64,000 nucleotides of DNA from a virus. Taxonomy: Duplodnaviria > Caudoviricetes. The notes under the pieces are model-generated. The model saw nothing but the letters and a program-made list of their open reading frames with translations, was not told the DNA's origin and made no database searches. Shown here piece after piece: positions 1 through 33,112 of this stretch (position 1 is its first letter; every line of letters starts with the position of its first letter). The position numbers and the translations under genes are program-made. Location: the IMG/VR virus record IMGVR_UViG_3300032243_001028, positions 32,001 to 96,000 of that record; one strand, given 5' to 3'.

Positions 1-3000
1 GGTACTGAAAACCTAGACATGACTAAGCCAGTTATTACTGTTTGGGGTTCAAAGCGTGCTAAGGGAAATAAAAGCCCTATTGGTTTTGCGCAAGACTGGT
101 CCGGCGTACAGAAGATTGCTGGAGATGAAGATGATCGTTTCGGAGATAAAGATAACCAGGATCTAACTCCTGAAGAAAAACCTGCTGTAGAAGCAGTTGT
201 TCCTAGCCAAAACCGCGAAACTCCAGAAGAAGAACCTAAGCCAGAAGTTACTCTACCCGATGCTGACTCTGACCCAGATGGCTCTATGCCAGAGGGCTGG
301 AACAAAATTGGCGAGCACACCTACCTATCTAAAGATCGTAGATTCCGAGTAACTTACGGATATGGTCAATCAGATGTTGCTTTGGTTTATGACCAGAGAA
401 CTGGCGATGTTTCATTCCAACCAATTATGTCTAATGGTGTCTACACCTTAACTGAGCGTGACGGCAATGGTGATTTCACTGTTGATACTCAGGTGCCATT
501 CTTTAACTGGCCGCAAGTAGAAGATCAAATTCATGCTATTAAGCATCTAGAAGCTCTTGATCCGCTATTTAACCCTAATATTGCTAACGTTCCTGAGTAT
601 CAAAGAGAAATGTACTCTAAGTTAGATCCAGCAGAACGTTTCCAGTACGACTATTTTGGTCCTGGATCAGACATGATCAAAAAAGCTGATGCAATCATTG
701 CACAGTTCTTACAGGACACTTATCCTGGAGACTTTACCACTCCAAAATTTAATGACAATGGTTACTGGGCAGGGCGTGGTTCAAGATCTGATACTGCTGC
801 AAGAATTGTTGACTCTGGAGACAATCTGAAAAGCGTTCAAATTGTGACCAAGCTTCTTGGTACAATAAAAACACATCCTATTTTTCCGGGTGAAGATGAG
901 AATGAAGTTCTTGCTGAGGCTCTTAGAGAGTATTTTCCGGTACCAGATAACCTACATAGATTTAGTTTGTACTCAGAGTTTAAAGACTTTGATATCACTA
1001 ATGGTAGAAGTGCAGCAAAAACTCTAGATGCTGTAGGCGAAATTTTGTACGATATGTACACAAGTTCTAAAGATGAATCAGACAATAAAATTCAAGATGA
1101 CGTTTACTACGTTTCTAGACTACAAAAAGGTCTAATGAACTATGTAAATCGTAGAAACGCAAAAGATACAGACCTAGGTCCTTCTCAGAACAGAGTTAAT
1201 GATGACTACGTTCCAAATGAAGCTCAGATTAGACGTCTAGTTGCAATTCTAAACTCTAGGTACGTTCACGACGAGCCAGATCTCTGGGATAAAGTTCGTG
1301 AAATTAAAAAGAATCCTGAAGAGCACACTGTAAAAGAAGTAAATGATCTTGCAGCATATATTGAAAAAAACTTCCGTGAACTAACCTCACCTGAAAAAGG
1401 CATGGCTTCATGGCTTCAAAAGTCTTACCTTAACTGGGCCCTAGACAATAAGAACTGGAATAAACAAGAAGCAGAAGAGATTAGAAAAAAGATCGATGAT
1501 AACACCCTAACCAGGGCAGAGTACGATCAACTTCACGAGAAAGCTTATAAACTACCTTTTAAACCGCCTCAGGCTCCGGCACCTACTCCAGAAGATATAG
1601 AAGAGCTAGAAAAACTTAGAGCAGCTGATAACACTGTAAACGGTAAACCTGATTACTGGCTAGCAGATCAGCCTACTGAAAGTCCTAAGTACCTTAGCAG
1701 CAACGTTCCTCAAGAAGCTATGGGCCCTAGCGATGGTCAACTTGTTGGTATTGAAAGATTCTTAGAGGATAGAGATATTCCTCAAGATTTAGTCCAAGAG
1801 TTTATGGACAACTACAAAGACATGAATGCTCGCGAGATCCGTGAATGGTATTACACATTCAAGGAGCATCCATTCAAAGAGCAGTACAAACCTAAGAACA
1901 AGTACGGGCTAGTTGCTAGAGATTTTGACGGTGCATCTGACAGAATGCTTGCCAGTATTGAACGTATCTTTGACAAGGGATTAGCAAGCGACAGAGAAAT
2001 TGCTGCAATTGTCAAAGCTGTCCCTAGAATGAACAAGTACGAGGTAAGTACTCAGATCATGTCCGAGCTTAAAGCTCGTGAAGATGCTCACGATAGTATT
2101 CTAATAAAGAAAGCTATTGAAGGTGGAGCGTCTATTAATGACCTAAACCTGATGGATCTTATTGGTAGACCTAATGCTCCCGAAGGCTGGGAAGACTACA
2201 AGCCAACCGATGAAGCTCGTAAAGAAATTCTTGCTGATGAAAAGGATCAGGAAGAAGTAAAGCAATATGTTGACAAGCAAGCTCGTAAGAATGCTGCTCG
2301 TAGATCTCGCTACGCTCTGACTCGTCTAGCAGCTTTTGTTGCTAATCACAGAGATCTTGTAAATGCTGATGGTAAAAGAATCATCGACGGAGCAGTCGAC
2401 GACATTAGAGACCTTAAGCGTATGCTTGACCTACGTAGAAAGTACGTAATTAAGCCTGCTAAGGTTATGGAACGTCTAGAGACTATTAAGAAGGGTCTAA
2501 CTGACTCAGATAATGCTCACACCTACGGACGTCTTAAGAATAAAAAGCCTAAGACTGTAGAGACTCTTGAAAAACTTGCAGCTGAAGTCGGATCTGTTAT
2601 GGGCAGAGATGGGTACCACAATAGTCCATTTGAAAATGACTACGACCCGTCTCTAGAAGATGAAGTAGATCACAGCACATCAGCAGAGGTATTTGAGCCA
2701 AATCCTGTTGAATCTCCAGAGATTCCAGTTGACACCGATCCAGTTCCTGGAATCATTGACTACTCTAACCACCCAAATAAACCTAGACCTCCTGCAAGAG
2801 TTAAACCTAAGGCTTTCTGGGGCGTTGTTCGCGATTGGATGGCTGGAGCAAAGAACTGGGATGATGTAACTGAAGCTTTAAGAGATAAAGTTCTACACTT
2901 TATTGATTTTGAAACTACCGGCATCTTTGACCCTTTACAGCCTCATGTTAAAAACGATCCAATTCAGATTGCTATATATAAAGTTGTAAACGGAGAAATC

Positions 3001-6000
3001 GTTGATAAGTTTATAAGCTACATGAATCCTGGATCTCCTTTAAGTTCATGGTCTATGGCAAATATAAAGGATGACAAAGGCAATCGAGTAACTCCTGAGT
3101 GGATTGCAAGTCTTCCAACTAAGAGTGAAGTTATTGCTAAGGCTTTGGAATTCCTAGGCCCGGACGCAATTCTAGCTGGCCACAACGTTGCTGATTATGA
3201 TTTAGAAGTTCTAAATAGAACTCTTAAAGAAGCCGGACTAGCAGAATATTCTCCTGCTGGAATGATTGACACGCTTGGACTAGCTGATCACATTTACAAT
3301 GTATTTAACAAAAAAACTAACCTTGGTGGTCCATATAAAGTAGGAGACTTTGGTATACATGGTTCTACCGCTCTAGAAGCTTTAGGAAGATACGAAGGTA
3401 TTCCTAGTAATTCATTACATAATGCAGCTAATGATCTAGAACTTAACGTCAAACTTCTAGGGCAGATGCTTAAAAGAGCTAAGTCTGGAACCGATTTGAT
3501 TAAAGATAATATCTTTGATCTCGATGCTTCAGATAATGACTATGACGCAAAACTTGCTAAGTATATTCCAGGCTACGAAGCATTTGTCGAACGTGCTTTA
3601 AAATTTATAGCTGATAGAGCTGTTGAAAGAGCTGCTAGAGGAGACGAGCCAGATCCTAAGGATCTAGAGCAAGAAGCAAGAAATGCTCTTAACTCTACAT
3701 CTCCAGAAGGAACTCCTACAAACGATCGTCCTACTTTCTCAAGCCTGTTCCCTCCAAAGCCAGATGATGGTGAACAACCTCTTACTGAAAGCAACGTTAT
3801 TGATGATCCACTAAATAAGATCAGAAAACCAAGCCCTAAGCAGTTGAAGAGCGTTGAAAGACGTCTATTGGATCCCAGAGACATAGTATCTGCGGAACGT
3901 AGAGAAGAGATCTGGAAGTTGCTTCCAAATGTCAACTCTAACGAAATCGGTGATCTAGTTAAGGAAATGGACGGTCTAGAACTTGACTACGCCATTGCTA
4001 ACAACCTAGACGTTGATGGTTTACGAGTTCCTACTGGATATGACCTAGATAAGTTAAATACTTACCTAGATGAGAAATATCCTGACCGTCACAAGAAGAG
4101 TGGCCCTAGTCAACTTCGTGAAGGCGTGAATCAACAGAGCACTTTGTCTCAGCTATCTTATGCTATGACTAACTTGCAAGATGCTTTAAGCTCTACTAGT
4201 AGTCCAGCAGAAAAGCGTGCTATTAACTCTGCTATTAAGAAACTGGAGCAAGCAGCTCAAGATGTAATAGATAGTCCGTCTCAGAACAGAGAGCGTCCTG
4301 CAGATACTAAGAATAAAGCTGAGCTAGCTACAGGAAAACACGATATCGGATTCTTGGATAAAGAGTACACCGATCAGCAGAAAGACGCTATTGAAGCTGG
4401 TATTCGTGGATGGTCAATTGTCATAAAAGCTTTGGCTGGTACAGGTAAAACCACTACTTTGATTGCTCTTGCAAAAGCAGTACTTCACTACTTCCCTAAG
4501 AAGAGAATTCTTGCTATGGCTTTCAACAAAGCTATCGCAGACGAGAACAGACTTAAGTTCCCGGGAAATACTGAAGTTAGAACTATGGACTCTGTAGCTT
4601 TCAAAGCTCCTGTAAACAGCAAACTTTCTAAAAAGTTTACTGCTATGAAGAAACAATCAGACCCAAAAAATAGACCAATCAATGGCTTTTTAGATATAGC
4701 TGACTACTTTAAGATTCCAAACGAAGTAGAGCTTGCTAATGGACAAAGGATTTCTAAGTTCTTAGCAGTAAAACTTGTACTAAAAGGTCTAAATAACTGG
4801 ACTATTAGTGCAGATGACGAGATATCTAGAAAGCATTTCGATGAAGTGTTTGGAGATAAAATCGGTGGACCCGAGGCCTATACCCCATTCTTCTTAGATC
4901 TAGCTCAAAAAATCTGGAAAGAAAAACTGCAACCACACGATGAAAGTGTTCGTCAGATTCCTGTAACTTTCAACGATATGATGAAGAACTTTGCTCTTAG
5001 CCACCCTAACCTAAAAGAAGTTAACTCTAAGGGAGAAAGCGTCCACGGTCTCGGTGCGATTCCGGATATCATTTTGATCGATGAGGCTCAGGACGTTAAC
5101 GGGGTGTTCTTTAGACTAATGGATGAGCAAGAAACTTTGCACAACAATGGTATACAACTTGTTGTTGTTGGAGATCCTCACCAATCTATCTATCAGTTCC
5201 GCGGAGCTGTAAACAGCTTGAACATGTTTAGAAGAATGGTAACCCTACCTTTAACCATGATGTTCCGTGCTGGTCAGGATGTTGCTGATTTCGCTAACCA
5301 AGTTTTGGAGATTAAAGATGAGGACGATGAACGTCTAGTTGGAAATCCTAATAAAACTTCAAGTCTTACAACTCCTGGAAGTATGACAGATGCAGACATG
5401 ATCCTAACTACAACCAACGCTGATGCTCTGTCAGAAATTATGAGTATGGTTGGTAGAGGTCAACGTGCCGGAGTTATTCGAGAGTTTAAAGCTGAAATGA
5501 ATAGTTTCTTGGCTACAGCTAAATGGTTATTGTTTGGTGCTAATCCTAAATACCGTCCAGCAAATGCTCACCAGGACTTAGACTCTTATGATAGTTGGAA
5601 GCAGATGCTTGAACTTCATCAAGAAGATTCTGACCCAGCAGTGTCAAGACTACTAAGCATTATGGATCAGACTGAGGCACGACTAGAAGAGCAAAACAGA
5701 GACAGCGATGGTAAGGCAGTGTTTGCTGAGCTAAAGCGAATAGTCGATGGAGCAAGAATCATTGGTATTCAAGGATTCAAAAAGCCTTCGGATGGCAACT
5801 GGGGCGACGAAGGAGATCTTGGAAACTTCATTAGCTACAAGATTGAAAATGGGGCTATCCGTCTCTACAACACTGGTGATGCAAAGCCTTGGACACCTGA
5901 GCTAAAGAATCCAAATAATGGAACTAAAAATAACTCTGACACTTTATCTTCAATGGGATACACATGGGACACAGGTAAGACCTGGGACTGGACCGTCCCT

Positions 6001-8550
6001 GTTCAAGGAGATGGGTCTGAGCAACTAAATGCTCTTGTGGATGCTTTGAGTGGTGCAGATGTAGATAGCATTGTTCTAACCGCCCACAGAGCTAAAGGAC
6101 TAGAAGCTAAAAACGTTAAACTCTCGGGAACATGGTTTAAACCTAATCCACAAAAAGATGCTGAAGCTATTGAAAAGGGTAATATGCCTCGATCTCTCAC
6201 TGTGGAAGCACTAAACCTTATGTATGTTGCTGCAACTAGAACTATGGACGAGCTAGACCCTGGAATGCTTGACTGGCTTGATGGTAAAACAGACGAGTTT
6301 AAAGCAAAGCGTAAGGACTATATACGTCAACTAGAGGCTAAGTCTAAGAAAGATCCTAACGAACCTACTCCACAAAAAACCGAGAGTTCGGGTCCTCAGA
6401 TTGTAGAAGTAGACCCTAATACTCTTCAAGTAGGCGATATCGTAGCTACTGCTAAAGGTAATAAGAGAATTAAGATGATAAGTCGTCACGATTCCGATGA
6501 AGTTAGCGTATTCTTTGAAGCTATTGATGGCGGTGGCGGTGCATCATATGTCAATGGCCAGCAGGCTAAAAAGGTTATCGGAGGCCCATCTCAAAACCGT
6601 GAAGGTGCTACCAACCCTGATAGTAAGTATGACTATACTGCTGACTGGAATACCGAATATTTAGGTGGACCTGAAGGAAATGACTACAAGCACACTTGGA
6701 ATTCTCCGGATGGCAAGTATGAAGCTACTATCTCTAATGATGCTATCCAAGTTCGTAAAAACGGAACTACTATTTTCCAAGGGGATAATAGTATAGATGC
6801 TAAGTCAGATCCAGAAAACGTCAAAGAGTCTAGCTTAGATATAGTTGCAAAAGCTATTGAATCAGATTCGGATTCTACTCCTAATAGATCTACTCCTGAG
6901 CAGCCAGTAATGTCTCAGGAAGAGATTAATGCAGCCTATGACGAAGCTATTCAAGCCGAGTACGATTACCAGATGTCTCTTGAGCCTATCTCTAGAGATC
7001 CTCAGTATCCTGGCGGAGAACGCGGTCTAAAGGAGCTTACAGAGGCAGTTCACGCTGCTGAAAGAATGACAGCCGAGATCGAGACTCCTGTTCTTGACCC
7101 TATTCCTAATGGACTAGATCCAGAAGAGTACGTGGCTCAACTCAGATCAGCTCTGCCGAACAAGAGAATAGAACTTTACACTGACGAAAATGGTGACAAG
7201 TTCGTGAAGGTCTCTGAAGTGGCAAATAAATCTGGAATCTTTGGAGCTTCCGAGGCAATCTTTGGTTGGAAAGACCTAGAAGACAACGGTCCTTCTCAAA
7301 ACCGCGAGAATAACAAACCTATAAAGAGCAATAAAGATGCTGTAGATCAGGTTATGGCTCAGATTACCGAAGCTATGGATAAGGGAATTATTCCTTGGAA
7401 GAAGCCTTGGACTGGCGGTGGATCTTACCTACCTACATCAGGCGCTACTGGTAAAAACTACAAGGGTGGGAACCTGATCATTCTAGAAGTTCTAAGTCAA
7501 TTTAGAGGCTACAAAGGTACCCGCTGGTACACAAAGAATGCTATTGCTAAGCTTGGTGGCTACGTCGACGAAAACGATGGTGTGCTTATAACCAAGGTTG
7601 TGAAGAGTAAGTACACTGTAAAGCCAGATGAGACCAAAACTATCATTGACCCAAAGACTGGTGACCAGAAGCCGGATGATGGTTCTAGAACCAAGACCAG
7701 ACTTGACATTGATGTTGTTTACAACGAAGATGTGGTTAAGGGTATTACTATTCCGCCACTTCCTAGAAAAGATCCACCTCCTATGCACGAAGTAGAAGAT
7801 ATTATTCTAGATTCTTACACAAATGGACCTAATATCAAATACAGCCCTGGAGACTCGGCTTTCTGGGCACCTGATGTTGACACAATCAGTCTTCCTCTAA
7901 GAGAGCAGTTCAACAGCACTGAAGAACACCTAGACACTCTATTCCATGAACTGGTTCACAGTACTGGTGCCTCGGACAGACTAGATCGTAAGGATCTTCT
8001 AGAAAACTACGGCAAGCACAAGGATGTCCGTGCTCGTGAAGAACTTATTGCAGAAATTGGAGCAGCTATTTTAGCTTCTATGTTTGGGATCAACACCAGT
8101 ATTGAAAACGTGGCTGCTTATGTTCAGTCTTGGAAGAGATTCTTGGAAACAGAGCCAAACGCTTTGTTTGAGGCCGCTTCTATGGCAAGCAAGGCAGTTG
8201 ACTACATCCTAGCTGGCTACTATGAAGATAACCCAGATGAAGAGTATGATCCAACTAATCAGCCTGGAGCTACCTCCATGCCAATTGAGCCAGTAACTGG
8301 TGAAGATGGATCTTCTGGAGGTCTTGGAGGCGGTGTCAACTATCGAATCGAAGGTAATAGAATCTTCCTGATGGGTGATACTATGGCTGCTAAAGATCTA
8401 ATCAAGAGTGTCTCACTAATCCCTAAAGATAAGAAGATCCCATTCTCATTCTTCTGGGATAGAAAAGCAAATAATTGGAGCATTAGCCTAGGTGATCCTG
8501 AGGATAGAGTAAATATTCTTAACCAACTTAAAGCACTTCTTGGTGGTTAA
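1..8550 (+). CDS. Giant polyvalent protein 1 (5'-truncated): helical repeats, DEDDh exonuclease, SF1 (UvrD-like) helicase, ArdC-N + zincin metallopeptidase
   Basis: Frame is open from base 1 (ggt act gaa aac cta gac atg) with no RBS before the ATG at 19, so the gene probably starts upstream of the window. Motifs FIDFETTG/GHNVADYD/LHNAAND; ALAGTGKTT, IDEAQD, VGDPHQSIYQFRGA, TAHRAKGLE, YVAATR; IPWKKPW...YKGGN...HELVH...EELIAE. Confidence 0.9.
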   Translation, partial: GTENLDMTKPVITVWGSKRAKGNKSPIGFAQDWSGVQKIAGDEDDRFGDKDNQDLTPEEKPAVEAVVPSQNRETPEEEPKPEVTLPDADSDPDGSMPEGWNKIGEHTYLSKDRRFRVTYGYGQSDVALVYDQRTGDVSFQPIMSNGVYTLTERDGNGDFTVDTQVPFFNWPQVEDQIHAIKHLEALDPLFNPNIANVPEYQREMYSKLDPAERFQYDYFGPGSDMIKKADAIIAQFLQDTYPGDFTTPKFNDNGYWAGRGSRSDTAARIVDSGDNLKSVQIVTKLLGTIKTHPIFPGEDENEVLAEALREYFPVPDNLHRFSLYSEFKDFDITNGRSAAKTLDAVGEILYDMYTSSKDESDNKIQDDVYYVSRLQKGLMNYVNRRNAKDTDLGPSQNRVNDDYVPNEAQIRRLVAILNSRYVHDEPDLWDKVREIKKNPEEHTVKEVNDLAAYIEKNFRELTSPEKGMASWLQKSYLNWALDNKNWNKQEAEEIRKKIDDNTLTRAEYDQLHEKAYKLPFKPPQAPAPTPEDIEELEKLRAADNTVNGKPDYWLADQPTESPKYLSSNVPQEAMGPSDGQLVGIERFLEDRDIPQDLVQEFMDNYKDMNAREIREWYYTFKEHPFKEQYKPKNKYGLVARDFDGASDRMLASIERIFDKGLASDREIAAIVKAVPRMNKYEVSTQIMSELKAREDAHDSILIKKAIEGGASINDLNLMDLIGRPNAPEGWEDYKPTDEARKEILADEKDQEEVKQYVDKQARKNAARRSRYALTRLAAFVANHRDLVNADGKRIIDGAVDDIRDLKRMLDLRRKYVIKPAKVMERLETIKKGLTDSDNAHTYGRLKNKKPKTVETLEKLAAEVGSVMGRDGYHNSPFENDYDPSLEDEVDHSTSAEVFEPNPVESPEIPVDTDPVPGIIDYSNHPNKPRPPARVKPKAFWGVVRDWMAGAKNWDDVTEALRDKVLHFIDFETTGIFDPLQPHVKNDPIQIAIYKVVNGEIVDKFISYMNPGSPLSSWSMANIKDDKGNRVTPEWIASLPTKSEVIAKALEFLGPDAILAGHNVADYDLEVLNRTLKEAGLAEYSPAGMIDTLGLADHIYNVFNKKTNLGGPYKVGDFGIHGSTALEALGRYEGIPSNSLHNAANDLELNVKLLGQMLKRAKSGTDLIKDNIFDLDASDNDYDAKLAKYIPGYEAFVERALKFIADRAVERAARGDEPDPKDLEQEARNALNSTSPEGTPTNDRPTFSSLFPPKPDDGEQPLTESNVIDDPLNKIRKPSPKQLKSVERRLLDPRDIVSAERREEIWKLLPNVNSNEIGDLVKEMDGLELDYAIANNLDVDGLRVPTGYDLDKLNTYLDEKYPDRHKKSGPSQLREGVNQQSTLSQLSYAMTNLQDALSSTSSPAEKRAINSAIKKLEQAAQDVIDSPSQNRERPADTKNKAELATGKHDIGFLDKEYTDQQKDAIEAGIRGWSIVIKALAGTGKTTTLIALAKAVLHYFPKKRILAMAFNKAIADENRLKFPGNTEVRTMDSVAFKAPVNSKLSKKFTAMKKQSDPKNRPINGFLDIADYFKIPNEVELANGQRISKFLAVKLVLKGLNNWTISADDEISRKHFDEVFGDKIGGPEAYTPFFLDLAQKIWKEKLQPHDESVRQIPVTFNDMMKNFALSHPNLKEVNSKGESVHGLGAIPDIILIDEAQDVNGVFFRLMDEQETLHNNGIQLVVVGDPHQSIYQFRGAVNSLNMFRRMVTLPLTMMFRAGQDVADFANQVLEIKDEDDERLVGNPNKTSSLTTPGSMTDADMILTTTNADALSEIMSMVGRGQRAGVIREFKAEMNSFLATAKWLLFGANPKYRPANAHQDLDSYDSWKQMLELHQEDSDPAVSRLLSIMDQTEARLEEQNRDSDGKAVFAELKRIVDGARIIGIQGFKKPSDGNWGDEGDLGNFISYKIENGAIRLYNTGDAKPWTPELKNPNNGTKNNSDTLSSMGYTWDTGKTWDWTVPVQGDGSEQLNALVDALSGADVDSIVLTAHRAKGLEAKNVKLSGTWFKPNPQKDAEAIEKGNMPRSLTVEALNLMYVAATRTMDELDPGMLDWLDGKTDEFKAKRKDYIRQLEAKSKKDPNEPTPQKTESSGPQIVEVDPNTLQVGDIVATAKGNKRIKMISRHDSDEVSVFFEAIDGGGGASYVNGQQAKKVIGGPSQNREGATNPDSKYDYTADWNTEYLGGPEGNDYKHTWNSPDGKYEATISNDAIQVRKNGTTIFQGDNSIDAKSDPENVKESSLDIVAKAIESDSDSTPNRSTPEQPVMSQEEINAAYDEAIQAEYDYQMSLEPISRDPQYPGGERGLKELTEAVHAAERMTAEIETPVLDPIPNGLDPEEYVAQLRSALPNKRIELYTDENGDKFVKVSEVANKSGIFGASEAIFGWKDLEDNGPSQNRENNKPIKSNKDAVDQVMAQITEAMDKGIIPWKKPWTGGGSYLPTSGATGKNYKGGNLIILEVLSQFRGYKGTRWYTKNAIAKLGGYVDENDGVLITKVVKSKYTVKPDETKTIIDPKTGDQKPDDGSRTKTRLDIDVVYNEDVVKGITIPPLPRKDPPPMHEVEDIILDSYTNGPNIKYSPGDSAFWAPDVDTISLPLREQFNSTEEHLDTLFHELVHSTGASDRLDRKDLLENYGKHKDVRAREELIAEIGAAILASMFGINTSIENVAAYVQSWKRFLETEPNALFEAASMASKAVDYILAGYYEDNPDEEYDPTNQPGATSMPIEPVTGEDGSSGGLGGGVNYRIEGNRIFLMGDTMAAKDLIKSVSLIPKDKKIPFSFFWDRKANNWSISLGDPEDRVNILNQLKALLGG
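2890..3470 (+). other. DEDDh (DnaQ-like) 3'-5' exonuclease domain in giant protein 1
   Basis: ExoI DFETTG, ExoII GHNVADYD, DTLGLA, ExoIII HNAAND. Confidence 0.88.
4366..6255 (+). other. Superfamily 1 (UvrD/Rep-like) helicase domain in giant protein 1
   Basis: Q motif TDQQ, Walker A ALAGTGKTT, Ia AFNKAIA, Walker B IDEAQD, III GDPHQSIYQFRGA, IV MFR, V TAHRAKGLE, VI YVAATR. Confidence 0.92.
7345..8217 (+). other. ardC: ArdC-like module (ArdC-N ssDNA-binding + zincin MPTase) in giant protein 1
   Basis: IIPWKKPW, TGKNYKGGNL, AFWAPDVDTISLP, TLFHELVHSTG..RLDR, EELIAEIGAA, AAYVQSW match the ArdC family pattern. Confidence 0.88.
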
Positions 8551-8572
8551 TTAAATCTTTATCCAGATACTT

Positions 8573-8581
8573 TGGTATACT
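8573..8581 (+). promoter_or_regulatory. Candidate extended -10 promoter (TGgTATACT)
   Basis: Intergenic, ~40 nt upstream of an AAGGAG-preceded small ORF; no convincing -35. Confidence 0.4.
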
Positions 8582-8618
8582 ATTTAAAGACTTATTAACC
8601 ATTTCAAGGAGTATTTAC

Positions 8619-8765
8619 ATGGAAAATTATTTGAACCCCGACCACTATACTCCTGAAGATGAAGAGTATTGGACTGCTATCTCTTTTCCAAACCCAGATC
8701 CAGATTTCCTATATGATAATGAAGGCACAGAAGATACTGAGCTAAAAAACACACCTTCAGAGTAG
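8619..8765 (+). CDS. Small acidic hypothetical protein (48 aa, MENYLNPDHY...), not in ORF track
   Basis: ATG preceded by AAGGAG; fills the gap between giant gene 1 and the next ORF. Confidence 0.65.
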   Translation: MENYLNPDHYTPEDEEYWTAISFPNPDPDFLYDNEGTEDTELKNTPSE

Positions 8766-8782
8766 AGACATAGGATATATAA

Positions 8783-8986
8783 ATGGACGAAAATAAAAAG
8801 TCTGAGGCCGAGCCTATGCTTACCATAGAGTCTTACAGAAATGATGAGCACATTGTTAAGAAAGTGCCGTACTCATCTCTATCGATTGAGCAATTAGTAA
8901 ATCTAACTTTAGAAGGCTCTAAAGCCGCCAACGAAGAGTTGCAACGCTTAATCGGAGTAGACATCCTTAAGGATGGCGGAGAATAG
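8783..8986 (+). CDS. Small hypothetical protein (67 aa)
   Basis: AGGA upstream; stop overlaps the GTG start of the 6251-aa gene (TAGTG). Confidence 0.7.
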   Translation: MDENKKSEAEPMLTIESYRNDEHIVKKVPYSSLSIEQLVNLTLEGSKAANEELQRLIGVDILKDGGE

Positions 8987-17900: not shown

Positions 17901-20900
17901 ATCTGAGCCAGAGGTTGAGGAGCAGCCTGGAGAAGAACTTCCAGATAAAATCTCCCGTGAAGACGGCTACAGACTATTTGAAGCTCTTAAAAAAGTTTAT
18001 GATTTCATTCACAGAAGTAAAAAAACTGAAGACCCTGATGCTGCTAAAAAAGATGCAAATGATAAGGTTAATCAACTAGCAAAGATTCTAAACCCTGAAG
18101 ATGTAGATGATTTTATTCGCTATGTAGATCTAGAAACAGCTTTTAGAAAGATAATGTCTAGTAGAGATTTTCTAGATAATTTTGAAGAATATATAAATAA
18201 TTATTCTTCAGGTAATGGTGCTGAGGTTAACCCTATACACAGGGGTGCCGATGGTAAAATAATCAACAAGGGAGATGATCTAGTTGTTGTTGATAAGGAT
18301 GGAAATCTTAAAAAGATAAGGCTACAAATATTTAAAAAGCCTAACCCTAGGGCTCTAAGCGATAAAACAGATTTTATTGAGTGGGGATATCAACTCAGGC
18401 TTGATGGAAATAAAAATCCTGAAATTGTAAACATCAACGACTCTAAAGAGTCATATTCCTTGGATAATGTATTCCACACTCAGGATGAGTCTGAGATCAG
18501 AAAGATTATTTCTAATAGGGATAAAGTTTCACCTGAAGCTCCGACAGCCCCTGAAGCTGTAGAAAATGCTGCTTACAATGGAAATCTAGAAGATGATCTA
18601 AGTGCTTTTAAAAATGTTCTAGAGAATGCAATTGAAAACTTTAGAAATCAGCCTGGCGCAGACAAGAATGTCTACAAAGCTGCAGCTAAAGAACTTTACA
18701 ATGAACTTAAGAAGCTAAACTCACTTTACGAAGATTCCGCTACAAGTGGCAATGATCTAGAGCAAATCCGTAACGTTTACGACGACAAGATCCGCGATCT
18801 AGGGGACATTCAATCAGCTAAAGAAAAGTCTAATCCTAATCAGAATAGAGAAAACTTTGTAAAAGATCTAAGAGGTCTGCAAGAGGGACTTATAGATGAT
18901 TTTGAAGCCGAGAGAGATCTTGGAATTATGGGAAGCTACTCTCCATACAATGTACTCAGCTATAGTGATGAAGACAAAGCAATTCTGCTTAAGAAAGCTA
19001 CCGCTGCCAGACTTCTTCAATACATGCCAGATGTTAGTTTTGAAGGCCTATTTGATTCAGTAGTGGCAAATTACACTAGAAAAATTTTTCCTTTTGGTGG
19101 TTGTGAAGCAGCTATACATGTTAAGAGTACTGTATACACTAATAACGCTCCATATATAGGTGGAGAGGGGTTGGCGTATAAATTTGACGGCACTGAAGTT
19201 AAAAATAGTGCCGATATGGTCAGACTTTTGGATACAGATATGTCTAATTTGGTAGAGGGTAGCCGAATTATAGGATCATATATTAGATTTTCCTCGGAGC
19301 TACCTGAGGTAGTTGTAACAACTATTACAAAAGAATTATTAGATAGAGTAAAAAATGTTAAAGGATCTAATTCTTCAAGTAATATTTTAGATTTTATGAA
19401 AAATGAAATGAATTTTAAAGTCTACTCCAGCTCCTCTAATCAAGACATGGATGATCTTAAAGAGATATTAATTGCTCACTTGATAAGAAGTTGGGCTATT
19501 ACATCAAATGATAGTGGTTATAAGTCTCACGCATTACAGAGACTTGCTGCAAGAATGTTTGCTATGGATAGCAGTAAAACTGCTGGTTGGCTGTATGCTG
19601 CTGGCCATGATCAAATTGATATTGATAGCCATATTCTTAAAGGAAATATTCCAGCCGATATAAATACTGTAGATAAGCTCGAGCAGTATGCATCTGATCT
19701 TGTGGATGAAGAGATTAGCAGACATTTTGATATCTACTCAAAATTTATAATGGGTATGTACAACTCTACTCAAGACCTGCTAAAAGACATAGGAATTGAT
19801 GGGGTAGTTGTATATAGAGGCTCTCAGGATCAAGAGCTTATCGCTCCAGATGGAACTCCTATAAAGAGGAACACTAGAGTAAATAATCTAATGAGTGCTA
19901 GGGCAAAGCAGCGTCCTATGTCTTCATGGTCTACATCTATTAGAACAGCATCTCAGTTTGCTGGAGGTCTATCTCCTATTATTATGGGTAAAATAGTACC
20001 TGCTGAAAAAGTTATAGCTATGCCTGGTACTGGTTTTGGATGTTTTGAAGAGAATGAGGTAGTACTACTAGGGGGGGATCTAGATGAAGTACTTTATGGT
20101 GTACCAGGAAATATAGATCTAAACGCATTTAAAAATAGCAGTGCTATGAATCCTCCTAAGCAGATTCAAGCCCTAGACCCTTCTACTGGACTTGCCGGTA
20201 TTTTACCGCCAAAGCCAACCTTCCCTACGTCTCAAAATAGGGAACGCGATCTACCAATTGTTGAGGTAGATAACAGCGAAGAGAACTCAGATTGGATTAA
20301 ACAGAGCGGCTGGGATCTTACTACCAACGTTGATGATTTCCTAAAAATGTTTACCAGCAGAGATCAACTTTCAGACTTTATGACTAAGCCTACTGCTCAA
20401 GGTATGCCTGAAGAAATGCTACGTAATCTATGGCCAGCTGCTGACAAGCACTTTGAGAAAATAGAGTCTGCTCCTAAGGAAGAAGAGTCTAAGTACCTTC
20501 CAGAGCCTTTTGATCCTAGAGATAAAAAAGCGGATTTAGATGAGTATTACAATTATGACTATACTAAGATGCCTGATGGCACTCCTTTTAATAGTGACCA
20601 GCAGCAGCAGATGGATGCAATAGCTAAAAGATTAGAGAACATTCTTAAAAATAATGATGAAGATGCTAACTCTTTTGCTGTAAAGAATTTAAAAAACTTT
20701 AGAAGAACTTTATATCAGCAAATAATTGCTAAGCCTACCAAAGGCTCTTCTACTACAAGAGATAGCATTCTTAAACAGGTAGAGTTTAGCGATAAACCAG
20801 CTGTAAAGTATTTTGATGAAGCTCGTGGACTAACTTACACAAGATATGTGGATAAGTTTACCGATAAATATGGTAGAAAATACTACATAGTTACTAACAT

Positions 20901-23900
20901 AGACGAAAGCTCTGGACGTCAGACTGTAGTAGCCTACGACCAAAAAAACTTTGAAGGTATGCCTCTACCTGAAGATTATGTAAGAAAAGACCAGCCTGTG
21001 TCTGGAATTAATGATGTCGGAGGACTCGATTCCTACATATTTAGAGATCCATCTGTGTCTGAAATCCAAAGTGTAATGGTTACTGATAGATACCAAAGAA
21101 GAGGTATAGCAACAGCCCTCGTTGCTGTTCTAGAGAAGAGATTAGGACTTCCGGTAGTTCACTCAGATAACTTATCAAGCATGGGATTTGCTTTCTCTAA
21201 CAGCATGGACCCTGGAAAGCCTGACCTTCACACCAATGAAAAGTCTATTGAACTTCAGAGTGACAATGCACCATCTCAAAACCGTGAAGGATTCTTCAAG
21301 AGAAACAAAGCCAAGAAAGAACCTTTTGATCCTACAGATCCTACCATCGATCTAGAAAAGTTCTATAACTACGACTACACTCAGATGCCCGATGGTACCC
21401 CATTCAATATTTATCAGCAGCAGCAAATGGATATTCTTAAAGATGCGATTGACAATGAACCTGATGATTTTGAAAGAAAACTGCGTATTGCTGAAAGAAG
21501 ACGTATCTATCAGGGATACACCGCTAAACCAAACTTAAAGTCTGGCACTAATCTTGAAAGTATTAAAGATCAGGTGAGACTTCTAGATGACAATACTTCT
21601 AGAATGAACTACAGCGGTGCTGGTAAACCTTATGCAGATCTACCATCAGAGTACAAGCAGAGTACTCAGTATATTGATGAGTTTACTGACAAGTACGGCA
21701 GACAGTACTGGGTAGTTACCAAGGTAGTAAACGGCCTAGGCATGTCAAACGTAAAGCTTTACGATAAGAGTAAGAACTCCCTACAAGATCTTCAAGATAA
21801 TTCAGAAGATAGAACTCCTGTGTCTTCATTAGATGTCTTTAATAACAAAATTAGCATGGTCTACACTTCAGATAGATATGTAAGAAGAGGTCTAGCTACT
21901 GCAGCTCTTCACTTAGCAAGAGAGCGTTCTGGAAAAGAAGTTCAACACTCAGAAATGTTAACCTCTTTTGGTAGAGCATTCTCCCTTTCAGTTGACCCTA
22001 ATCCTGATCTTCATAGAAATGATGAATCAAAAGTTACTCTGTCTAACAATCAACCTTCTCAGAACCGTGAGAACCAGTATCCGCCTGAGCCTTTTGATCC
22101 TAATGATCGTACTCTCGATCTAGATACTATCTATAACTATGATTACACCAAGCTTCCTGACGGAACTCCGTTCAATGCTAAGCAACAAAAAGCAATGGAT
22201 CACGAGAATAAAATTCTTGAAGAAGCCATAGCTTCTGGGGACGAAGCAAAAATACGTGCAGCTAAAATTGCTAGAAGATATACATATAATACATTTATAA
22301 CTGTAGCTAACCCCGACTCCAAAACAACCACTGAAACTATAGCCGATCAGATTACTCCTGGTAAAGCTAAACCTAAAAAGTTTACTGGGTTTGTTCGTTA
22401 CACAGATAACTTTACAGATAAATACGGTAGAAAATACGTGATTTTCACTGATATAAGAACTGATGATAAGGGGGACAATTCTGCAATGGTAACAGTGCAT
22501 GATATGAAGAGTATGTTCCTTGAGAAAATTTTTGTCCCTGAGGGTATGGAAAATGTTGATCAATTTGGAGGAAAAAGTCTTCACATAGCTTCATTAAAAG
22601 TTAACGATGATGATAGAAAAGATCCAAATGCTGCTGCTTATATTGGTATGGTACTTACTGATGATGCGTATAGACGCCGTGGTCTTGCAACAGCAATGCT
22701 GTACTTAGCTCGTAAACATTACAGCAAGCCTGTTAACCACTCAAGCACTCTTACCATGTACGGTAAAGCTTTTTCTAACTCTGTAGATGCTGGAAAACCA
22801 GACGTACACGATTCTCTAGAATCTAAGCAACTACAGATTGATCTCCTTAAAGAGAAGGGTCTTCCTGTAAAAGAGTCTGAACTTGATGGCGATGAAATTG
22901 ACTATGGACCTAATCAAAATAGAGAAAATATTGAAGAGCCTACTATTCTTAATGAATATCGTGAAGTAATTCCTCTTAATAATTCCTATAGAGATAAGAA
23001 TGACCCAGATCTTGACCTTACACAGTGGGTGACTGGGGGCACTAAAATATATGGAATAGGTAATGGCGGTAACCCACTGGGATACGTCAGAACTGAAAAG
23101 CTTGCCACAATGAAAGGCAATCTTGCAGATATGGAGAGCAGTACATCTTCTATAGCCCATGACCTCGAAGACGGAACTGGCTACTTAGAGCCGGTACTAG
23201 TTTGGTACAACCCTCTTACTGGAAGAGCTTTTATTGCAGAAGGAAATCATAGGGTTGAAGCTGCACGTATAGCTGGAAGAGAGTATGTGCCTGTTGTAGT
23301 TGGCGTTAGCACTGTGGACTTTAAAAATCCAACTACAATGGAAAGATCCGGAGGAGTCGGAGATGTAGTTTTAAATAAGGATGGAAGTCTAGAAAACTTC
23401 AAGAATGCTAAAGATGGATCACTTATAAATCCATACCACCTATTTAATGACGAGGATCTTTTATACCCTAGAATCAATTTGGATCCAAAAGATGTACCTG
23501 GATTTACAGACGTACTTAAAATACAGTCTGATCTTTTAAATGAGCTTATGGCTGAGAATGAAGAGACTGGACTTAATGAGATTGCTACGTGGTACGATCC
23601 GGATGCTTTTGACATAGATAGTTCAATTGGACATATGGGCGGAGCCTCTGAGCAATTAAAAGAGATTACCGCTAAAAATATAGGTAGTAATATGTTATCT
23701 TCTCCTAAAGATATTTTGGGAGCATTAGATCATGCCATATCTATCAGTCAGGTAGTCAGATCTAGGTTGAGTTATCTAGATAGTCAAAAGATGGCTCTAA
23801 AAGCTTTAGATAGTAAATCGGATAATTTAAATGAAAATTCTATTATATTATTTATTGATGACTCTGAGCACTCTCCATATGAAGGATTACATATAGAAAC

Positions 23901-26900
23901 TCTAAGAGAAGTACTAGATTCCATGGATCCTTACGATGAAGAACTGTACGGAAACCCTTACGATGAAGAAACTATTGACTATAAAACTCTTTTTGACGAT
24001 TACTATGCAAATAAAAATAAAAAACCAATTTTCTTTGACAATCCGGAAGACATAGAGGCATTTAAAGAAAAAGCCGCTTCAATACTTGTTGCGCAGTGGG
24101 CAGAGACATCTAATGGTAGTGATATGCTATCTCACGCTTTACAGATTGCTGCTGCTGAGACATTTAAAATGCCTGCTGGTTCGTGGTCACCGTGGAAAGT
24201 TCAAAGTAAAAACGCCCAATATACAAAAGATATTTTAGAAAATGCAGAATACTACTATGGAATTCACAGTTCTGTTCTTAAAGATTTCTTAAAAACTATG
24301 TACGATCTTACCCAGGATCGATTTAAAAATTATGGAATAAAATACTTAACTCTTTACAGAGGTACTGGAGTAGACGAAGAAGCTTTAAAAATAGACACCG
24401 GTATTGAATACAATGGCATAGGAGATGTTGAAATATTGCAAAGACCTATGTCAGCTTGGGCTTGGCTTCACGGTGATGCTTTCAACTTTGCTACTAGTAG
24501 GTTGCAAGAAAGAGCCGGAATGTTTATGGGAACTATTATTCCTGTTGAGCAGGTACTTTCTATTCCCGGCACAGGTTTTGGTTGCTTTGAAGAAGCTGAA
24601 GTAGTTCTACTGGCAGGAAAAAATAGACTAGTAAGGGCTGTTACTAGTGATTTTTCTAACCCTACTCTTGATCAAAAAACTTTTATTGCTGAGAATGCAA
24701 GTAAAGTAATTTCTTACTTACTGGACCAGCTCCCTAAAGATAAAAACGCTTTTGATAATCTTATTGAATTTAACAAGGGTACTCCTAATACTGCTGGCCC
24801 ATCACAAAATAGAGAGATTCCGTCTATCAACGTCGATGATAGCGTAGAAAACTCTGACTGGGTTATCTCCGAGTTTGCAAAAAAGAAAAAACTAGATGCT
24901 AAAGAAAATGAACTTCCTGAAGGATCTGGTCAAACTAATCCAGTTGAGGAACCTATTTCCTTAAATGAGCTACACAGAACATTTATTACAGCACTTCTAG
25001 CTGGTGCCGGAGATCAGAGAACTAGACCCCTTCCTGATGCAAAGCCAGAGTGGTTGGCAGCAGATGTAGAAACTGATAATTTAACAATGGCTGAAAAAAA
25101 TGCTATTTATACGTGGTACATGAACGTTGTTAAGGGAGATGGAGCTAGTAGTGACAATCTATCTATTAATGCTCAGGTATATCTTACTAAGCATATAATT
25201 CCTTTAATTAATAGACATGCTGAGGATGATATGTTGCTTCCTCACCACGATATCTATATAAATAAAGATAATAATGTGACTATTAAAGTTGTTAGATTTA
25301 TAATTAATCCAACTAAGAAAAATGGTAAAACAAATGTAAATACCGAATACAGAGCTGCTACAGCTGCTGGAGTGGCTAAATTTGCAAATAAACTTTCGGA
25401 TGTATTATCTAGAGTTAAATTTAAGTTCCCTGTAAAAGAGCTTCAAGTAATTATTAGTCACCCTAGTATAGAAGATTACTTCAAGCCATTTACTAGAGAT
25501 GATGGTACTCGTGGCCGAAACTTAGCTGGGTTGTCTTTCCCTCACATGTTTGTTAATGGTCAAATTTTGAACGAAGAAGATGTTAAGCCTAATCCTAAAC
25601 TCACTGAAAATCCTAGGGCAGATGCTACAGAACTAGAGTCTACAATTGCTCACGAAATAGGCCACGTTCTTCAACAAAAAGGCATCATTAATTTTAACGA
25701 TCAGGCTACAAAAGATACGCTTCGTAGATTTATGACTGAATATCCTCTAAGTGACTATGCAGCTACTGATGAAGCAGAATATCTAGCGGAAGCATATGCT
25801 GGAATGATGATATCCGAAGATGGTATTGGAAGGCATAAAGAAGTTGCTGACTGGATCAATGATCAAATTGCTACTGTTGATGAAAGAAAAGAAAAAGCTG
25901 CCATTGATCTTCTAAAGGGTATGCTAGAAAAACTTGGTATTCCAAATAATAGTAAACCTAGCCAAAACAGGGAAGGTTCTAGAGAACAGATTATTGCATC
26001 TGCGGCTAAGGACATTGCTTCTAGCGGTATCGGATTTACTCCTGGAAAAATTAAAAATGACATAAGCATAGCAATTGATGGTCCTGTAGTACAGATTGAA
26101 GGATTTCCTAAAAAAGATGCAGTAGCCCCATCTGATCAGGCTACCGCCATTAAAAATGAAATAATCGGCCTAGGACATATGATTCTAGATGATGCTAGAA
26201 CTATCTCAGATGAGCAAGCTAGAGCTGAGGGTCTTATTCCTGAAGGATTTGATGCTGAAGAATATAGAAAAAAACTAGAAAATGATGCTAGAGCTTTAGA
26301 ATTAGAAATATCTAAAGGAGATAGTAAATTTAGAGCTATGGCCCAAGACCTTATGAGGAATGCTTTTAACAGGCTTTCTTATGAAGATAAAGAAGAGGTA
26401 TTCCAAAGTTTAAAACAAGAGGCTGCTAAAGAATTATCTGGTAAAGATGTAAATGTTTTTAGTGCAGAAGAAACTTTCAATATGCTTCTAGTTGAGTACG
26501 GGGATGACCTTTCCCATAAACTTGCTTATGATTATGCTACCCCACATTCAGAGTTTATTTTTGATACTGGTAAAACTGTGCTACAAAGAGTTAGAAGTAA
26601 AAAAACTTTAAGATTAACTAAAGATGTAGAAGAAGTAAGAGCTTTAATAGATGTTACGGGAGCACACGAGGGCGGAGAAACTATCCTAAGTCTGCTTACC
26701 AAATGGGCTATTCGAACAGGTAAAATTGACACATCAGACCTTGCTAAGAAAGCAGCTGAAATAAAGGAAGTAAGAGATCGGCTTAGAGCTTCTCCAAAAG
26801 CAGAAGATTTTACTAATAAATATCATTCTATAATTGGTAAAAATATTAAATCTCAGATGGAAAAGTCTGGAGTTGAATTTGACTCGATTCCTGCACATCA

Positions 26901-33004: not shown

Positions 33005-33112
33005 AGGTGGAGTGCCTTTACGTTTCTATGCGTAATAGTCCCTTTACCTTGAACCGATTAGCATGATGTTCAAAATATGACATCATCAACTGTCCTATTA
33101 AGGAGGAACAGT
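33005..33112 (+). promoter_or_regulatory. Structured 5' leader of the major capsid gene
   Basis: Stems AGGTGGAG/CTTTACCT (inner TTACG/CGTAA), ATGATGT/ACATCAT, and ACTGTCCT/AGGAACAGT covering the RBS and start. Confidence 0.45.

Follow-up and report, generated by a model that had tools for sequence, protein, structure and literature searches.

Two giant proteins encoded in the head module of a tailed phage are divided into 18 units by a short junction peptide, and sister lineages have exchanged this peptide for others in a concerted manner. The stretch of DNA under study, called the window here, comprises 64,000 nucleotides (nt) and corresponds to positions 32001–96000 of the virus record IMGVR_UViG_3300032243_001028, which has 135,096 bp and direct terminal repeats and is estimated to be complete. 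It contains giant protein 2 and all but the N-terminal part of giant protein 1. The last unit of giant protein 1 is an ArdC protein with a zincin domain, and its distribution among related genomes matches that of the junction peptides with a single exception. We regard the giants as polyvalent cargo proteins and the junction peptide as a cleavage signal, most likely read by the ArdC-type zincin; for this reading as a whole we estimate a probability of about 0.5.

Junction peptides in the two giant proteins

We scanned a six-frame translation of the window with the pattern [PT][SN]Q[NLF]R[EVI]. The scan yielded 15 matches, all on the + strand and in a single frame, exactly where the first-pass annotation of this DNA had placed its 15 copies of the peptide. 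Giant protein 1 contains PSQNRE at 202–219, PSQNRV at 1180–1197 (GPSPKEE at the matching joint in the related genomes G002 and G003), PSQLRE at 4105–4122, and PSQNRE at 4276–4293, at 6586–6603 (following the helicase unit) and at 7291–7308 (directly preceding the ArdC unit). The copies at 4105 and 4276 enclose a unit of 57 amino acids (aa). Giant protein 2 contains PSQNRE at 14089–14106, 21271–21288, 22054–22071, 24799–24816 and 25957–25974, the last of these preceding the final unit, together with PNQNRE at 18835–18852 and 22909–22926 and TSQNRE at 20227–20244. A degenerate copy, PNQFRI, is located at 10819–10836, where relatives have GPSPKEE (G002), GPSPKQE (P0011) or GPSPKKE (G003). An alignment of orthologues added a degenerate 16th site, PAQNKE at 9736–9753 on the + strand; at this joint the relatives have PAQNRE, PTQNRE, PSQSRE or GPSPK[EQ]E.

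The peptide is exclusive to the two giants, as had been claimed for the open reading frames (ORFs) of the window and as now holds for the whole genome. Of all 237 stop-to-stop frames of at least 80 aa (53,087 aa), just the two giant frames contain the pattern (6 + 9 matches), and the word QNRE is likewise confined to them (4 + 8). Neither has a copy in the capsid, scaffold-like or protease proteins or in any other ORF of the genome. The comparison with shuffled controls that the first-pass annotation had called for gave an equally clear result: the loose pattern was found 15 times as compared to a mean of 0.0068 in 5000 residue shuffles of the giants (maximum 1), and the strict form P[SN]QNRE 11 times as compared to a mean of 0.0004.

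Serine is encoded by TCT, TCA, AGC and AGT and arginine by CGC, CGT, AGA and AGG, so that both codon families are used for each residue, and the mean pairwise identity of the motif 18-mers is 12/18 nt. This free codon variation places the constraint on the peptide and not on the DNA, in agreement with the earlier proposal. None of the 16 copies is located within a Pfam envelope. They lie strictly at the boundaries of units, whose full length can be aligned with units of relatives, and none is found near the free end of either giant. The residues flanking the motif have a hydrophobic fraction of 0.233 (0.29 for the whole proteins).

Unit architecture of the giant proteins

Giant protein 1 (window part 1–8550, + strand) has 3240 aa in total. 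Its frame does not start at window position 19, as initially assumed, but begins 1177 nt upstream of the window, at genome position 30825, and is open across the window edge. It comprises seven units: a targeting-like N-terminal unit (465 aa), a 326-aa unit, an RNase_T exonuclease, the 57-aa unit, a UvrD helicase, a 235-aa unit and ArdC. Giant protein 2 (8986–27741, + strand, GTG start) has 6251 aa and 11 units. Units 1–4 are the N-terminal unit, an RNase_T exonuclease, a zincin-bearing unit of 1090 aa and a unit of 1582 aa. They are followed by an ART-like unit, three GNAT units and a unit that is ParB-like plus ART-like (units 5–9), and finally by an M78-like zincin and a terminal HExxH unit (units 10 and 11). 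The architecture of roughly 17 effectors drawn up from the window alone thus stands with a count of 18. The segment sizes given there mostly agree with ours as well; the segment described as N-terminus plus exonuclease (611 aa), however, consists of two units (256 + 361 aa) split at PAQNKE.

Pfam searches assigned RNase_T, UvrD helicase, ArdC-N and MPTase-PolyVal to giant protein 1, and RNase_T, GNAT domains and the M78-like zincin to giant protein 2. MPTase-PolyVal (PF18818) was matched with 97.9 bits (cut-off 27.5) at residues 2604–2721 of P0001, and according to Pfam it is present in a single unit, the ArdC unit. Three further units of giant protein 2 contain HExxH motifs (HELGH, HEIGH and HEVWH). 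When searched as a separate unit, the HEIGH unit matches Pfam M78 at the 22-bit cut-off of this family (E = 1.5e-4). Of the HExxH domains that had been considered as possible proteases, then, the ArdC unit is a Pfam MPTase-PolyVal, whereas the other three are zincins of restricted distribution, which other punctuated lineages lack. With several unrelated enzyme domains per polypeptide, in a virus, and with a zincin-like MPTase-PolyVal domain, the giants have two of the features by which polyvalent proteins are recognized, the third being delivery together with the DNA.

The labels ART and ParB, given previously to several domains, were not confirmed by hidden Markov models for the units of the window: Pfam at E ≤ 1 yielded nothing relevant, and a profile search against the PDB gave a single chance-level match. 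For the ART-like unit there are language-model leads only (DUF4765, 0.93; DRAT, 0.92), and a conserved R/S/ExE-like pattern. The three GNAT units are tandem paralogues, each of which carries the motif along. A small conserved element of the form [IV]xVD[ND]SxEN[SA]DW[IV] is located after the junction peptide behind both ART-like units (window ~20263–20310 and ~24826–24870); it forms a separate 82-aa unit in G003 and is found upstream of the junction peptide in P0011.

Lineage-specific junction peptides and exchange of units

A search with giant protein 2 returned eight proteins at E ≤ 0.001 among 909 candidates. One of these was the protein of the window itself, which leaves seven orthologues. 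Five of them (P0005–P0009) retain P[SN]QNRE, and the other two (P0010 and P0011) have GPSPK[EQ]E at the same places. In an alignment of nine giant-2 sequences the change from P[SN]QNRE to GPSPK[EQK]E affects all 11 joints at once, in flanks that are variable and contain insertions and deletions. GPSPK[EQK]E is present at all 11 aligned joints of P0010, P0011 and G003, and giant 1 of G002 and G003 has undergone the matching switch at 6–7 joints. Where the N-terminal unit of giant 2 adjoins the exonuclease unit, five lineages have PAQNKE, GPSPKEE, GPSPKQE, LDKMAAR or LQLMAFK. It had been suggested that homologous giants might keep either the motif or a lineage-specific boundary motif; both are seen in the relatives.

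We also fetched 79 related loci via the neighboring protease gene (43–96% identity). Giant ORFs lie upstream of this gene in 79/79, and 69 loci had enough upstream ORF for a de novo search based on word counts and a BLOSUM 7-mer self-similarity scan. A recurring junction peptide was detected in 12 of these 69 loci (5–12 similar 7-mers); 56 loci had four similar 7-mers or fewer, and shuffled controls three or fewer. The remaining locus, L058, also reaches five, via a DAPEGY word that resembles a domain start and not a junction peptide. The clade of the window uses GPSQNRE, G002 (20 copies) and L008 use GPS[PQ]KEE, and G003 uses GPSPK[QEK]E (19 copies). GF[AS]QxPG is found in G001 (23 copies), [IL]D[KR]MA[PA]K in G038 (~12 true copies among 14 matches to D.MA) and a weaker dialect, [KR]PQ[LF]M[AR]F, in G007 and G034 (~5 copies). 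L008, in which GPSQKEE is mixed with GPSPKEE (Q or P at the fourth position), is an intermediate between dialects.

Dozens of parallel substitutions at ~17–20 joints are not neutral and therefore point to one reader with shifted specificity. The pattern implies a single reader that would be encoded by the phage and would co-evolve with the junction peptide.

The joints also delimit what is gained and lost. Alignments of window units with those of G002 and G003 extend over the entire unit (e.g. 771/771 versus 770/770), and the differences between lineages are whole units: an extra GNAT unit, a unit that is only ART-like or only ParB-like, a lost zincin unit, and in G003 an additional C-terminal unit behind ArdC. 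Insertions begin directly after a motif. P0010 and P0011 have a block of extra units (~900 aa) right after the joint at 21271, and in G003 a ParB-like unit is inserted right after the joint at 24799. The idea that new domains could be added by flanking them with the motif is in line with these units, which are inserted or lost whole beside it. Some units are very short, namely 57 aa in the window, 31 aa in G002 and 11 aa in G003.

Several related sequences showed further peculiarities. A comparison of L031 (7060–7200) with L017 (6933–7100) revealed a deletion of ~125 nt in L031 that starts inside a twin GFAQ site. It splits a giant of 1779 aa into ORFs of 863 and 879 aa, the fission being located exactly at the joint, and is possibly an assembly variant. 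In L017, which belongs to the GFAQ lineage, the stop codon of giant 1 (region 4400–4470) is followed at once by the perfect hairpin CCCCCGAAAAGGGGG. Giant 2 has an open frame from at least 22 nt upstream of this stop, a nearby GTG is out of frame, and a start codon before the first junction peptide of giant 2 was not seen in the short stretch inspected. The hairpin region could be a site of frameshifting or recoding that fuses both giants, or a terminator.

The viral contig L239 encodes an unrelated giant (3629-aa ORF with an ArdC-like domain) with 11 copies of [LP]SLSSG-type peptides, a further dialect. In P0012, a fragment 88% identical to the ArdC unit, TGPSQSFKK (residues ~218–226) takes the place of GPSQNRE and represents either another dialect or a decayed site. 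Words of the type D[AL]PEG[WFY] occur three to five times in the motif-less giants upstream of the protease gene in L058, L033, L046, L059 and L071, and the window has MPEGW at ~270–285, shortly after the first junction peptide. Instead of a junction peptide, these words probably represent the beginning of a small repeated domain.

The ArdC unit and its distribution

The ArdC unit (7309–8547, + strand) is composed of an ArdC-N single-stranded-DNA-binding domain (Pfam PF08401), the MPTase-PolyVal zincin domain (HELVH plus the Glu helix) and a C-terminal extension of ~100 aa. A profile built from 60 homologues matches PDB entries 6SNA and 6I89 (E = 2.3e-94) over chain residues 3–300. Residues H213, E214, H217, E244, E245 and E249 are invariant in the alignment (A1, first row the unit of the window). 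As judged from these matches, the unit is a complete ArdC with intact catalytic residues. The alignment of ArdC to 6SNA begins ~10 residues after the junction peptide, and a cut at this position would therefore yield a protein of the extent of free-standing ArdC.

In order to compare distributions, 160 queries (142 ORFs and 18 units) were run as a tblastn profile against 14 genomes. The ArdC unit was the only query out of 160 that is present in all six punctuated genomes, i.e. those with a recurring junction peptide, and absent from seven unpunctuated ones (G006, G008, G024, G011, G009, G012 and G017). The three other HExxH units of giant protein 2 are confined to the supergroup of the window and had no BLAST match in the punctuated genomes G001, G038, G007 and G034. 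We also searched for PF18818 in 78 related records. It was present in 5/5 punctuated records tested first, in 4/35 further records (G007, G034 and G038, which were then found to be punctuated, and the unpunctuated G029), and in 4/38 remaining records, all of them of the QNRE or GFAQ type. PF18818 is absent from eight of nine records that are at least 90% complete, all nine of which are unpunctuated. G029 is the sole positive record without punctuation; a DL[QL]PGD repeat considered as its junction peptide was rejected, as it looks like part of a repeated domain.

In a tree of the protease protein (FastTree, 77 rows) all punctuated lineages fall within one 20-row clade (support 97). Two members of this clade, G006 and G008, have both giants complete and lack the ArdC unit as well as the punctuation. 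The giants of G006 (L102/L103) contain three [VI]EEMA[SA] words, at ~564 and ~1809 of giant 1 and at 3197 of giant 2, which look like decaying junction peptides and resemble IDKMAPK of the sister lineage.

We also predicted the complex of the ArdC unit (60-row alignment) with a 40-aa linker containing GPSQNRE and a zinc ion. Its score of 0.25, with 0.32 as the mark and without controls, weighs neither way.

Genomic context and the capsid maturation protease

The genes are arranged in the order terminase large subunit, portal, a 390-aa protein, giant 1, giant 2 and a 1511-aa protease fusion, followed by major capsid protein, major tail protein, adaptor, tape measure and distal tail proteins. 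Both giant genes are thus part of the head module and are located between the genes for the portal and the capsid maturation protease. At genome 27835–29649, the portal gene encodes a protein of 604 aa (phrog_776, E = 1e-100). The N-terminal part of the 390-aa protein matches phrog_3636, a PHROG named DNA-binding protein. The major capsid protein (33111–35159, + strand) is free of the junction peptide. A megablast search with window positions 1–25000 against the phage collection gave no match at the DNA level. Among named phages the closest is DSL-LC01, an Actinomycetia phage isolated from lake water, whose maturation protease region is 72% identical and whose gene order (portal, giant, protease, capsid) is the same. 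The virus is probably an uncultured, siphophage-like freshwater actinophage; since DSL-LC01 is the nearest named phage, its host is likely actinobacterial.

The 1511-aa capsid maturation protease fusion (28432–32967, + strand) contains an S78-like protease region at ~30649–31851. Pfam Peptidase_S78 is matched by 25 of 39 aligned homologues (best E = 1.9e-6), whereas the copy in the window is itself below threshold (16.9 bits, cut-off 21). A homologue is annotated as capsid maturation protease in 860 actinophage records. At E ≤ 1, the genome contains no match to Pfam Peptidase_S77 (T4 gp21 type) or Phage_Mu_F, and PDB sequences searched with a profile of the protease region yielded none either. 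We also considered the 1511-aa protein as a portal fusion, because phrog_859 is named 'portal'. This assignment was rejected: the portal is the 604-aa protein, and the homologues in DSL-LC01 are annotated as capsid maturation protease. The N-terminal 739 aa (28432–30648) match only phrog_6439 and phrog_2859, both of unknown function, and no Pfam family; this part might be MuF-like.

The S78 region is 59–94% identical across all dialects and motif-less lineages. ALVAAG at its edge is invariant across dialects; in the 39 homologues A, L, A, A and G are invariant and V is nearly so. In the window, the region is flanked by G-L-V-A-A-S-like (30691–30708) and A-L-V-A-A-G-A (31804–31824) peptides, which are possibly the own cut sites of the maturation protease and would then constitute a second code, distinct from the junction peptide.

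A different motif, RDxxG[RK][WF], is common to the giants and the protease protein. The genome has exactly four copies of it, of which two are in the protease protein and each giant has one, in its N-terminal unit. Three copies are located at window positions 9088–9108, 29527–29547 and 32485–32505, and the fourth at genome position 31497, 504 nt before the window. The copies in the giants are RDSKGRWIEMGGG and RDKYGRWVEMGRG, and the giant of DSL-LC01 has RDRYGKFAFMGGG. The motif may be a capsid-targeting or scaffold-binding peptide.

Proposed mechanism and alternatives

Based on the arrangement of units and joints and on the distribution of the ArdC unit we propose the following mechanism. The giants would be produced late and taken up into the procapsid via their N-terminal units. 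Packaging is suggested by the position of the genes in the head module and by the N-terminal RDxxG[RK]W motif that the giants have in common with the maturation protease. The ArdC-type zincin of giant protein 1 would then cut the junction peptides in cis and in trans, at a bond within or next to the peptide, either while still in the head or once ejected. The timing of this activity could depend on DNA binding by ArdC-N; here we speculate by analogy with the DNA-dependent relatives Spartan and IrrE, which are named in the ArdC study (PMC7213743). Cleavage would release ~18 products, among them exonucleases, a UvrD helicase, ArdC, GNATs, ART-like and ParB-like proteins and zincins, which would act on the host.

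The individual parts of this proposal differ in strength. On the sequence evidence, the junction peptide is probably a proteolytic cleavage signal. That this signal is read by the ArdC zincin in particular has, in our estimation, somewhat less than an even chance. The generalization that ArdC-type MPTases are sequence-specific polyprotein proteases, that the heptapeptide dialect of each lineage co-evolves with its zincin and that the giants are head-packaged polyproteins, cut into ~18 enzymes of anti-defence and host takeover, is tentative.

Among the alternatives, the one that survives best is an uncut docking peptide, one per joint, for a co-evolving partner from phage or host, such as a chaperone, a packaging adaptor, the capsid interior or an ejection or unfolding factor. 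A concerted change proves a common reader and not proteolysis, and the polar, hydrophobic-poor flanks would suit a linear motif that is accessible. The work on polyvalent proteins also reports MPTase-bearing proteins that are uncut in virions or during transfer (PMC5512222). The phyletic profile, however, offers no candidate binding partner with the right distribution, and only a peptidase unit fits. The copies are located solely between units and never close to the free ends of the giants, and the very short units resemble doubled cut sites, not cargo tags. We therefore regard docking without cleavage as unlikely.

The signal could also be a cleavage site for the S78 maturation protease of the 1511-aa protein, in which case the giants would be cut inside the prohead. 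The gene is located directly downstream of the giants, and the RDxxG[RK][WF] motif suggests that giants and protease meet in the prohead. In the window clade, Glu is the last residue of most dialects, and Glu at P1 is the rule for prohead proteases of the T4 and phiKZ type. GF[AS]QxPG, IDKMAPK and PQLMAF, however, lack a terminal Glu. The protease region and its ALVAAG edge stay nearly constant, regardless of which of five unrelated dialects, or none, is present, and motif-less relatives have the same protease and giants with no punctuation. This near-constancy, together with the absence of the motif from the capsid protein, the protease protein and all other ORFs, argues against the maturation protease as the reader. 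The prohead protease, which the first-pass annotation had listed as a possible partner of the motif, is thus an improbable one.

Slightly less probable still is another protease, i.e. one of the other HExxH units, an enzyme encoded elsewhere, or a host protease acting after ejection, in which case the dialects would track host range. Giant protein 2 does carry the HELGH, HEIGH and HEVWH units, and the punctuated genomes other than that of the window are fragments; for G002, G003 and G038 the profile is limited to the head and tail module. These three zincins, however, are missing from four punctuated genomes as described above, and no other ORF of the window genome tracks punctuation in the scorable genomes. 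That there is no reader at all, the peptide being a relic of cassette joining (a recombination joint) or of tandem unit duplication, is very improbable: three tandem GNAT paralogues bring the motif along and units are exchanged at it, but the synonymous codons vary too much for recombination at 12/18 nt mean identity, unrelated units have the motif in common, and a concerted change of ~17–20 joints in sister lineages is unexpected for neutral relics.

Cleavage of the junction peptides by the ArdC-type zincin faces several counterarguments, which we gather here. We found no cleavage product, virion proteome or packaging datum for the phage of the window or its relatives, and the five dialects share no obvious common scissile pair. 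The association between ArdC and punctuation mostly reflects one origin and two joint losses. A test with independent contrasts comprised four contrasts, three in the same direction, none in the opposite direction and one without difference (p = 0.25). In G029 the ArdC unit is present, as was also seen by tblastn, and a junction motif is not; ArdC is therefore insufficient for punctuation. The ArdC units of the QNRE and PKEE dialects have 87% identity, so that a change in specificity would have to rest on few residues.

The wider occurrence of ArdC points in the same direction. Among the best 80 ArdC-like matches in viral contigs, 71 are located in ORFs of less than 1200 aa, nearly all of them free-standing proteins of ~300 aa, which need no polyprotein. 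The other nine are part of giant ORFs. Three of these are punctuated (QNRE, GFAQ with 16 copies and [LP]SLSSG with 11 copies), and six, from one related lineage (L162–L167), are not; the peptide before the ArdC domain of the latter, DPxPVT[PA]EE, does not recur and was not accepted as a sixth dialect. For plasmid ArdC and the N4 virion RNA polymerase, both of which have MPTase domains, transfer or packaging without cleavage has been reported (PMC5512222).

Relation to known systems and significance

Processing of polyvalent proteins by their MPTase domains was predicted by Iyer, Burroughs, Anand, de Souza and Aravind in 2017; the accessible text of that paper gives no site, and the word 'linker' does not occur in it (PMC5512222). 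In the literature searched, supplements aside, no junction or cleavage motif for polyvalent proteins was found. The giants of the window resemble the polyvalent proteins described there, which are giant head-module strings of ArdC-N, MPTase, exonuclease, helicase, GNAT, ParB-like and ART-like domains (PMC5512222). They differ in having an explicit peptide of 6–7 residues at every joint, for which sister lineages have substituted their own in a concerted way. A polyvalent protein of 2811 aa has been detected in virions of phi24B, according to a preprint (bioRxiv 10.64898/2026.04.10.717836). The last unit of giant protein 1 matches ArdC of plasmid R388 (6SNA, 6I89) over its whole length, with HExxH and the Glu helix intact; for the plasmid protein, the protease is described as having no known substrate and its activity as dispensable for the conjugation phenotype tested (PMC7213743). 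Unlike R388 ArdC, the unit of the window is one part of a 3240-aa protein, with a junction peptide before it and an extension of ~100 aa after it.

The predicted processing has counterparts in other systems. Polyproteins of potyviruses (NIa protease) and picornaviruses (3C protease) likewise combine many enzymes, a short protease-specific site (a heptapeptide) at each joint and a protease within the same polyprotein, and their sites vary between lineages and co-evolve with the protease. They belong to eukaryotic RNA viruses with chymotrypsin-like proteases, whereas the window stems from a double-stranded DNA tailed phage and the candidate is a zincin. In MARTX toxins a giant carrier holds unrelated effectors, which are freed at inter-domain linkers by an autoprocessing cysteine protease; a similar release is predicted here. 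The MARTX protease cuts after Leu, with little further sequence requirement. These toxins are secreted by bacteria, and the giants have no repeat-based translocation region in common with them. Finally, the prohead proteases T4 gp21, phiKZ gp175 and SPN3US gp245 cut head-internal cargo at a short recurring motif during maturation, to which the proposed cleavage of the giants would be similar, the motif being AXE in reports on SPN3US (PMC10052503, PMC5694885). In these phages the motifs have three residues and are also present in capsid, scaffold and protease, whereas here 6–7 residues are confined to two giants and vary against a nearly constant protease.

The idea that polyvalent proteins are processed has thus been without a defined site since 2017; the window and its relatives now provide 16 joints, five dialects and a candidate enzyme. 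They contribute the concerted switch at 11 orthologous joints with an intermediate, the joint loss of ArdC and punctuation, and an argument against the maturation protease. Sister phages without ArdC and punctuation, and lineages with ArdC and no punctuation, can serve as natural controls. Polyvalent proteins are widespread in phages and conjugative elements. If the junction peptides are cut as proposed, a polyprotein strategy similar to that of potyviruses would exist in tailed double-stranded DNA phages, and it would explain how proteins of 3000–6000 aa are delivered as working enzymes. The protease domain of ArdC would have a substrate, and the dialects would represent natural orthogonal pairs of protease and site. 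If the peptide is a docking signal instead, it would define a new co-evolving recognition system for phage cargo.

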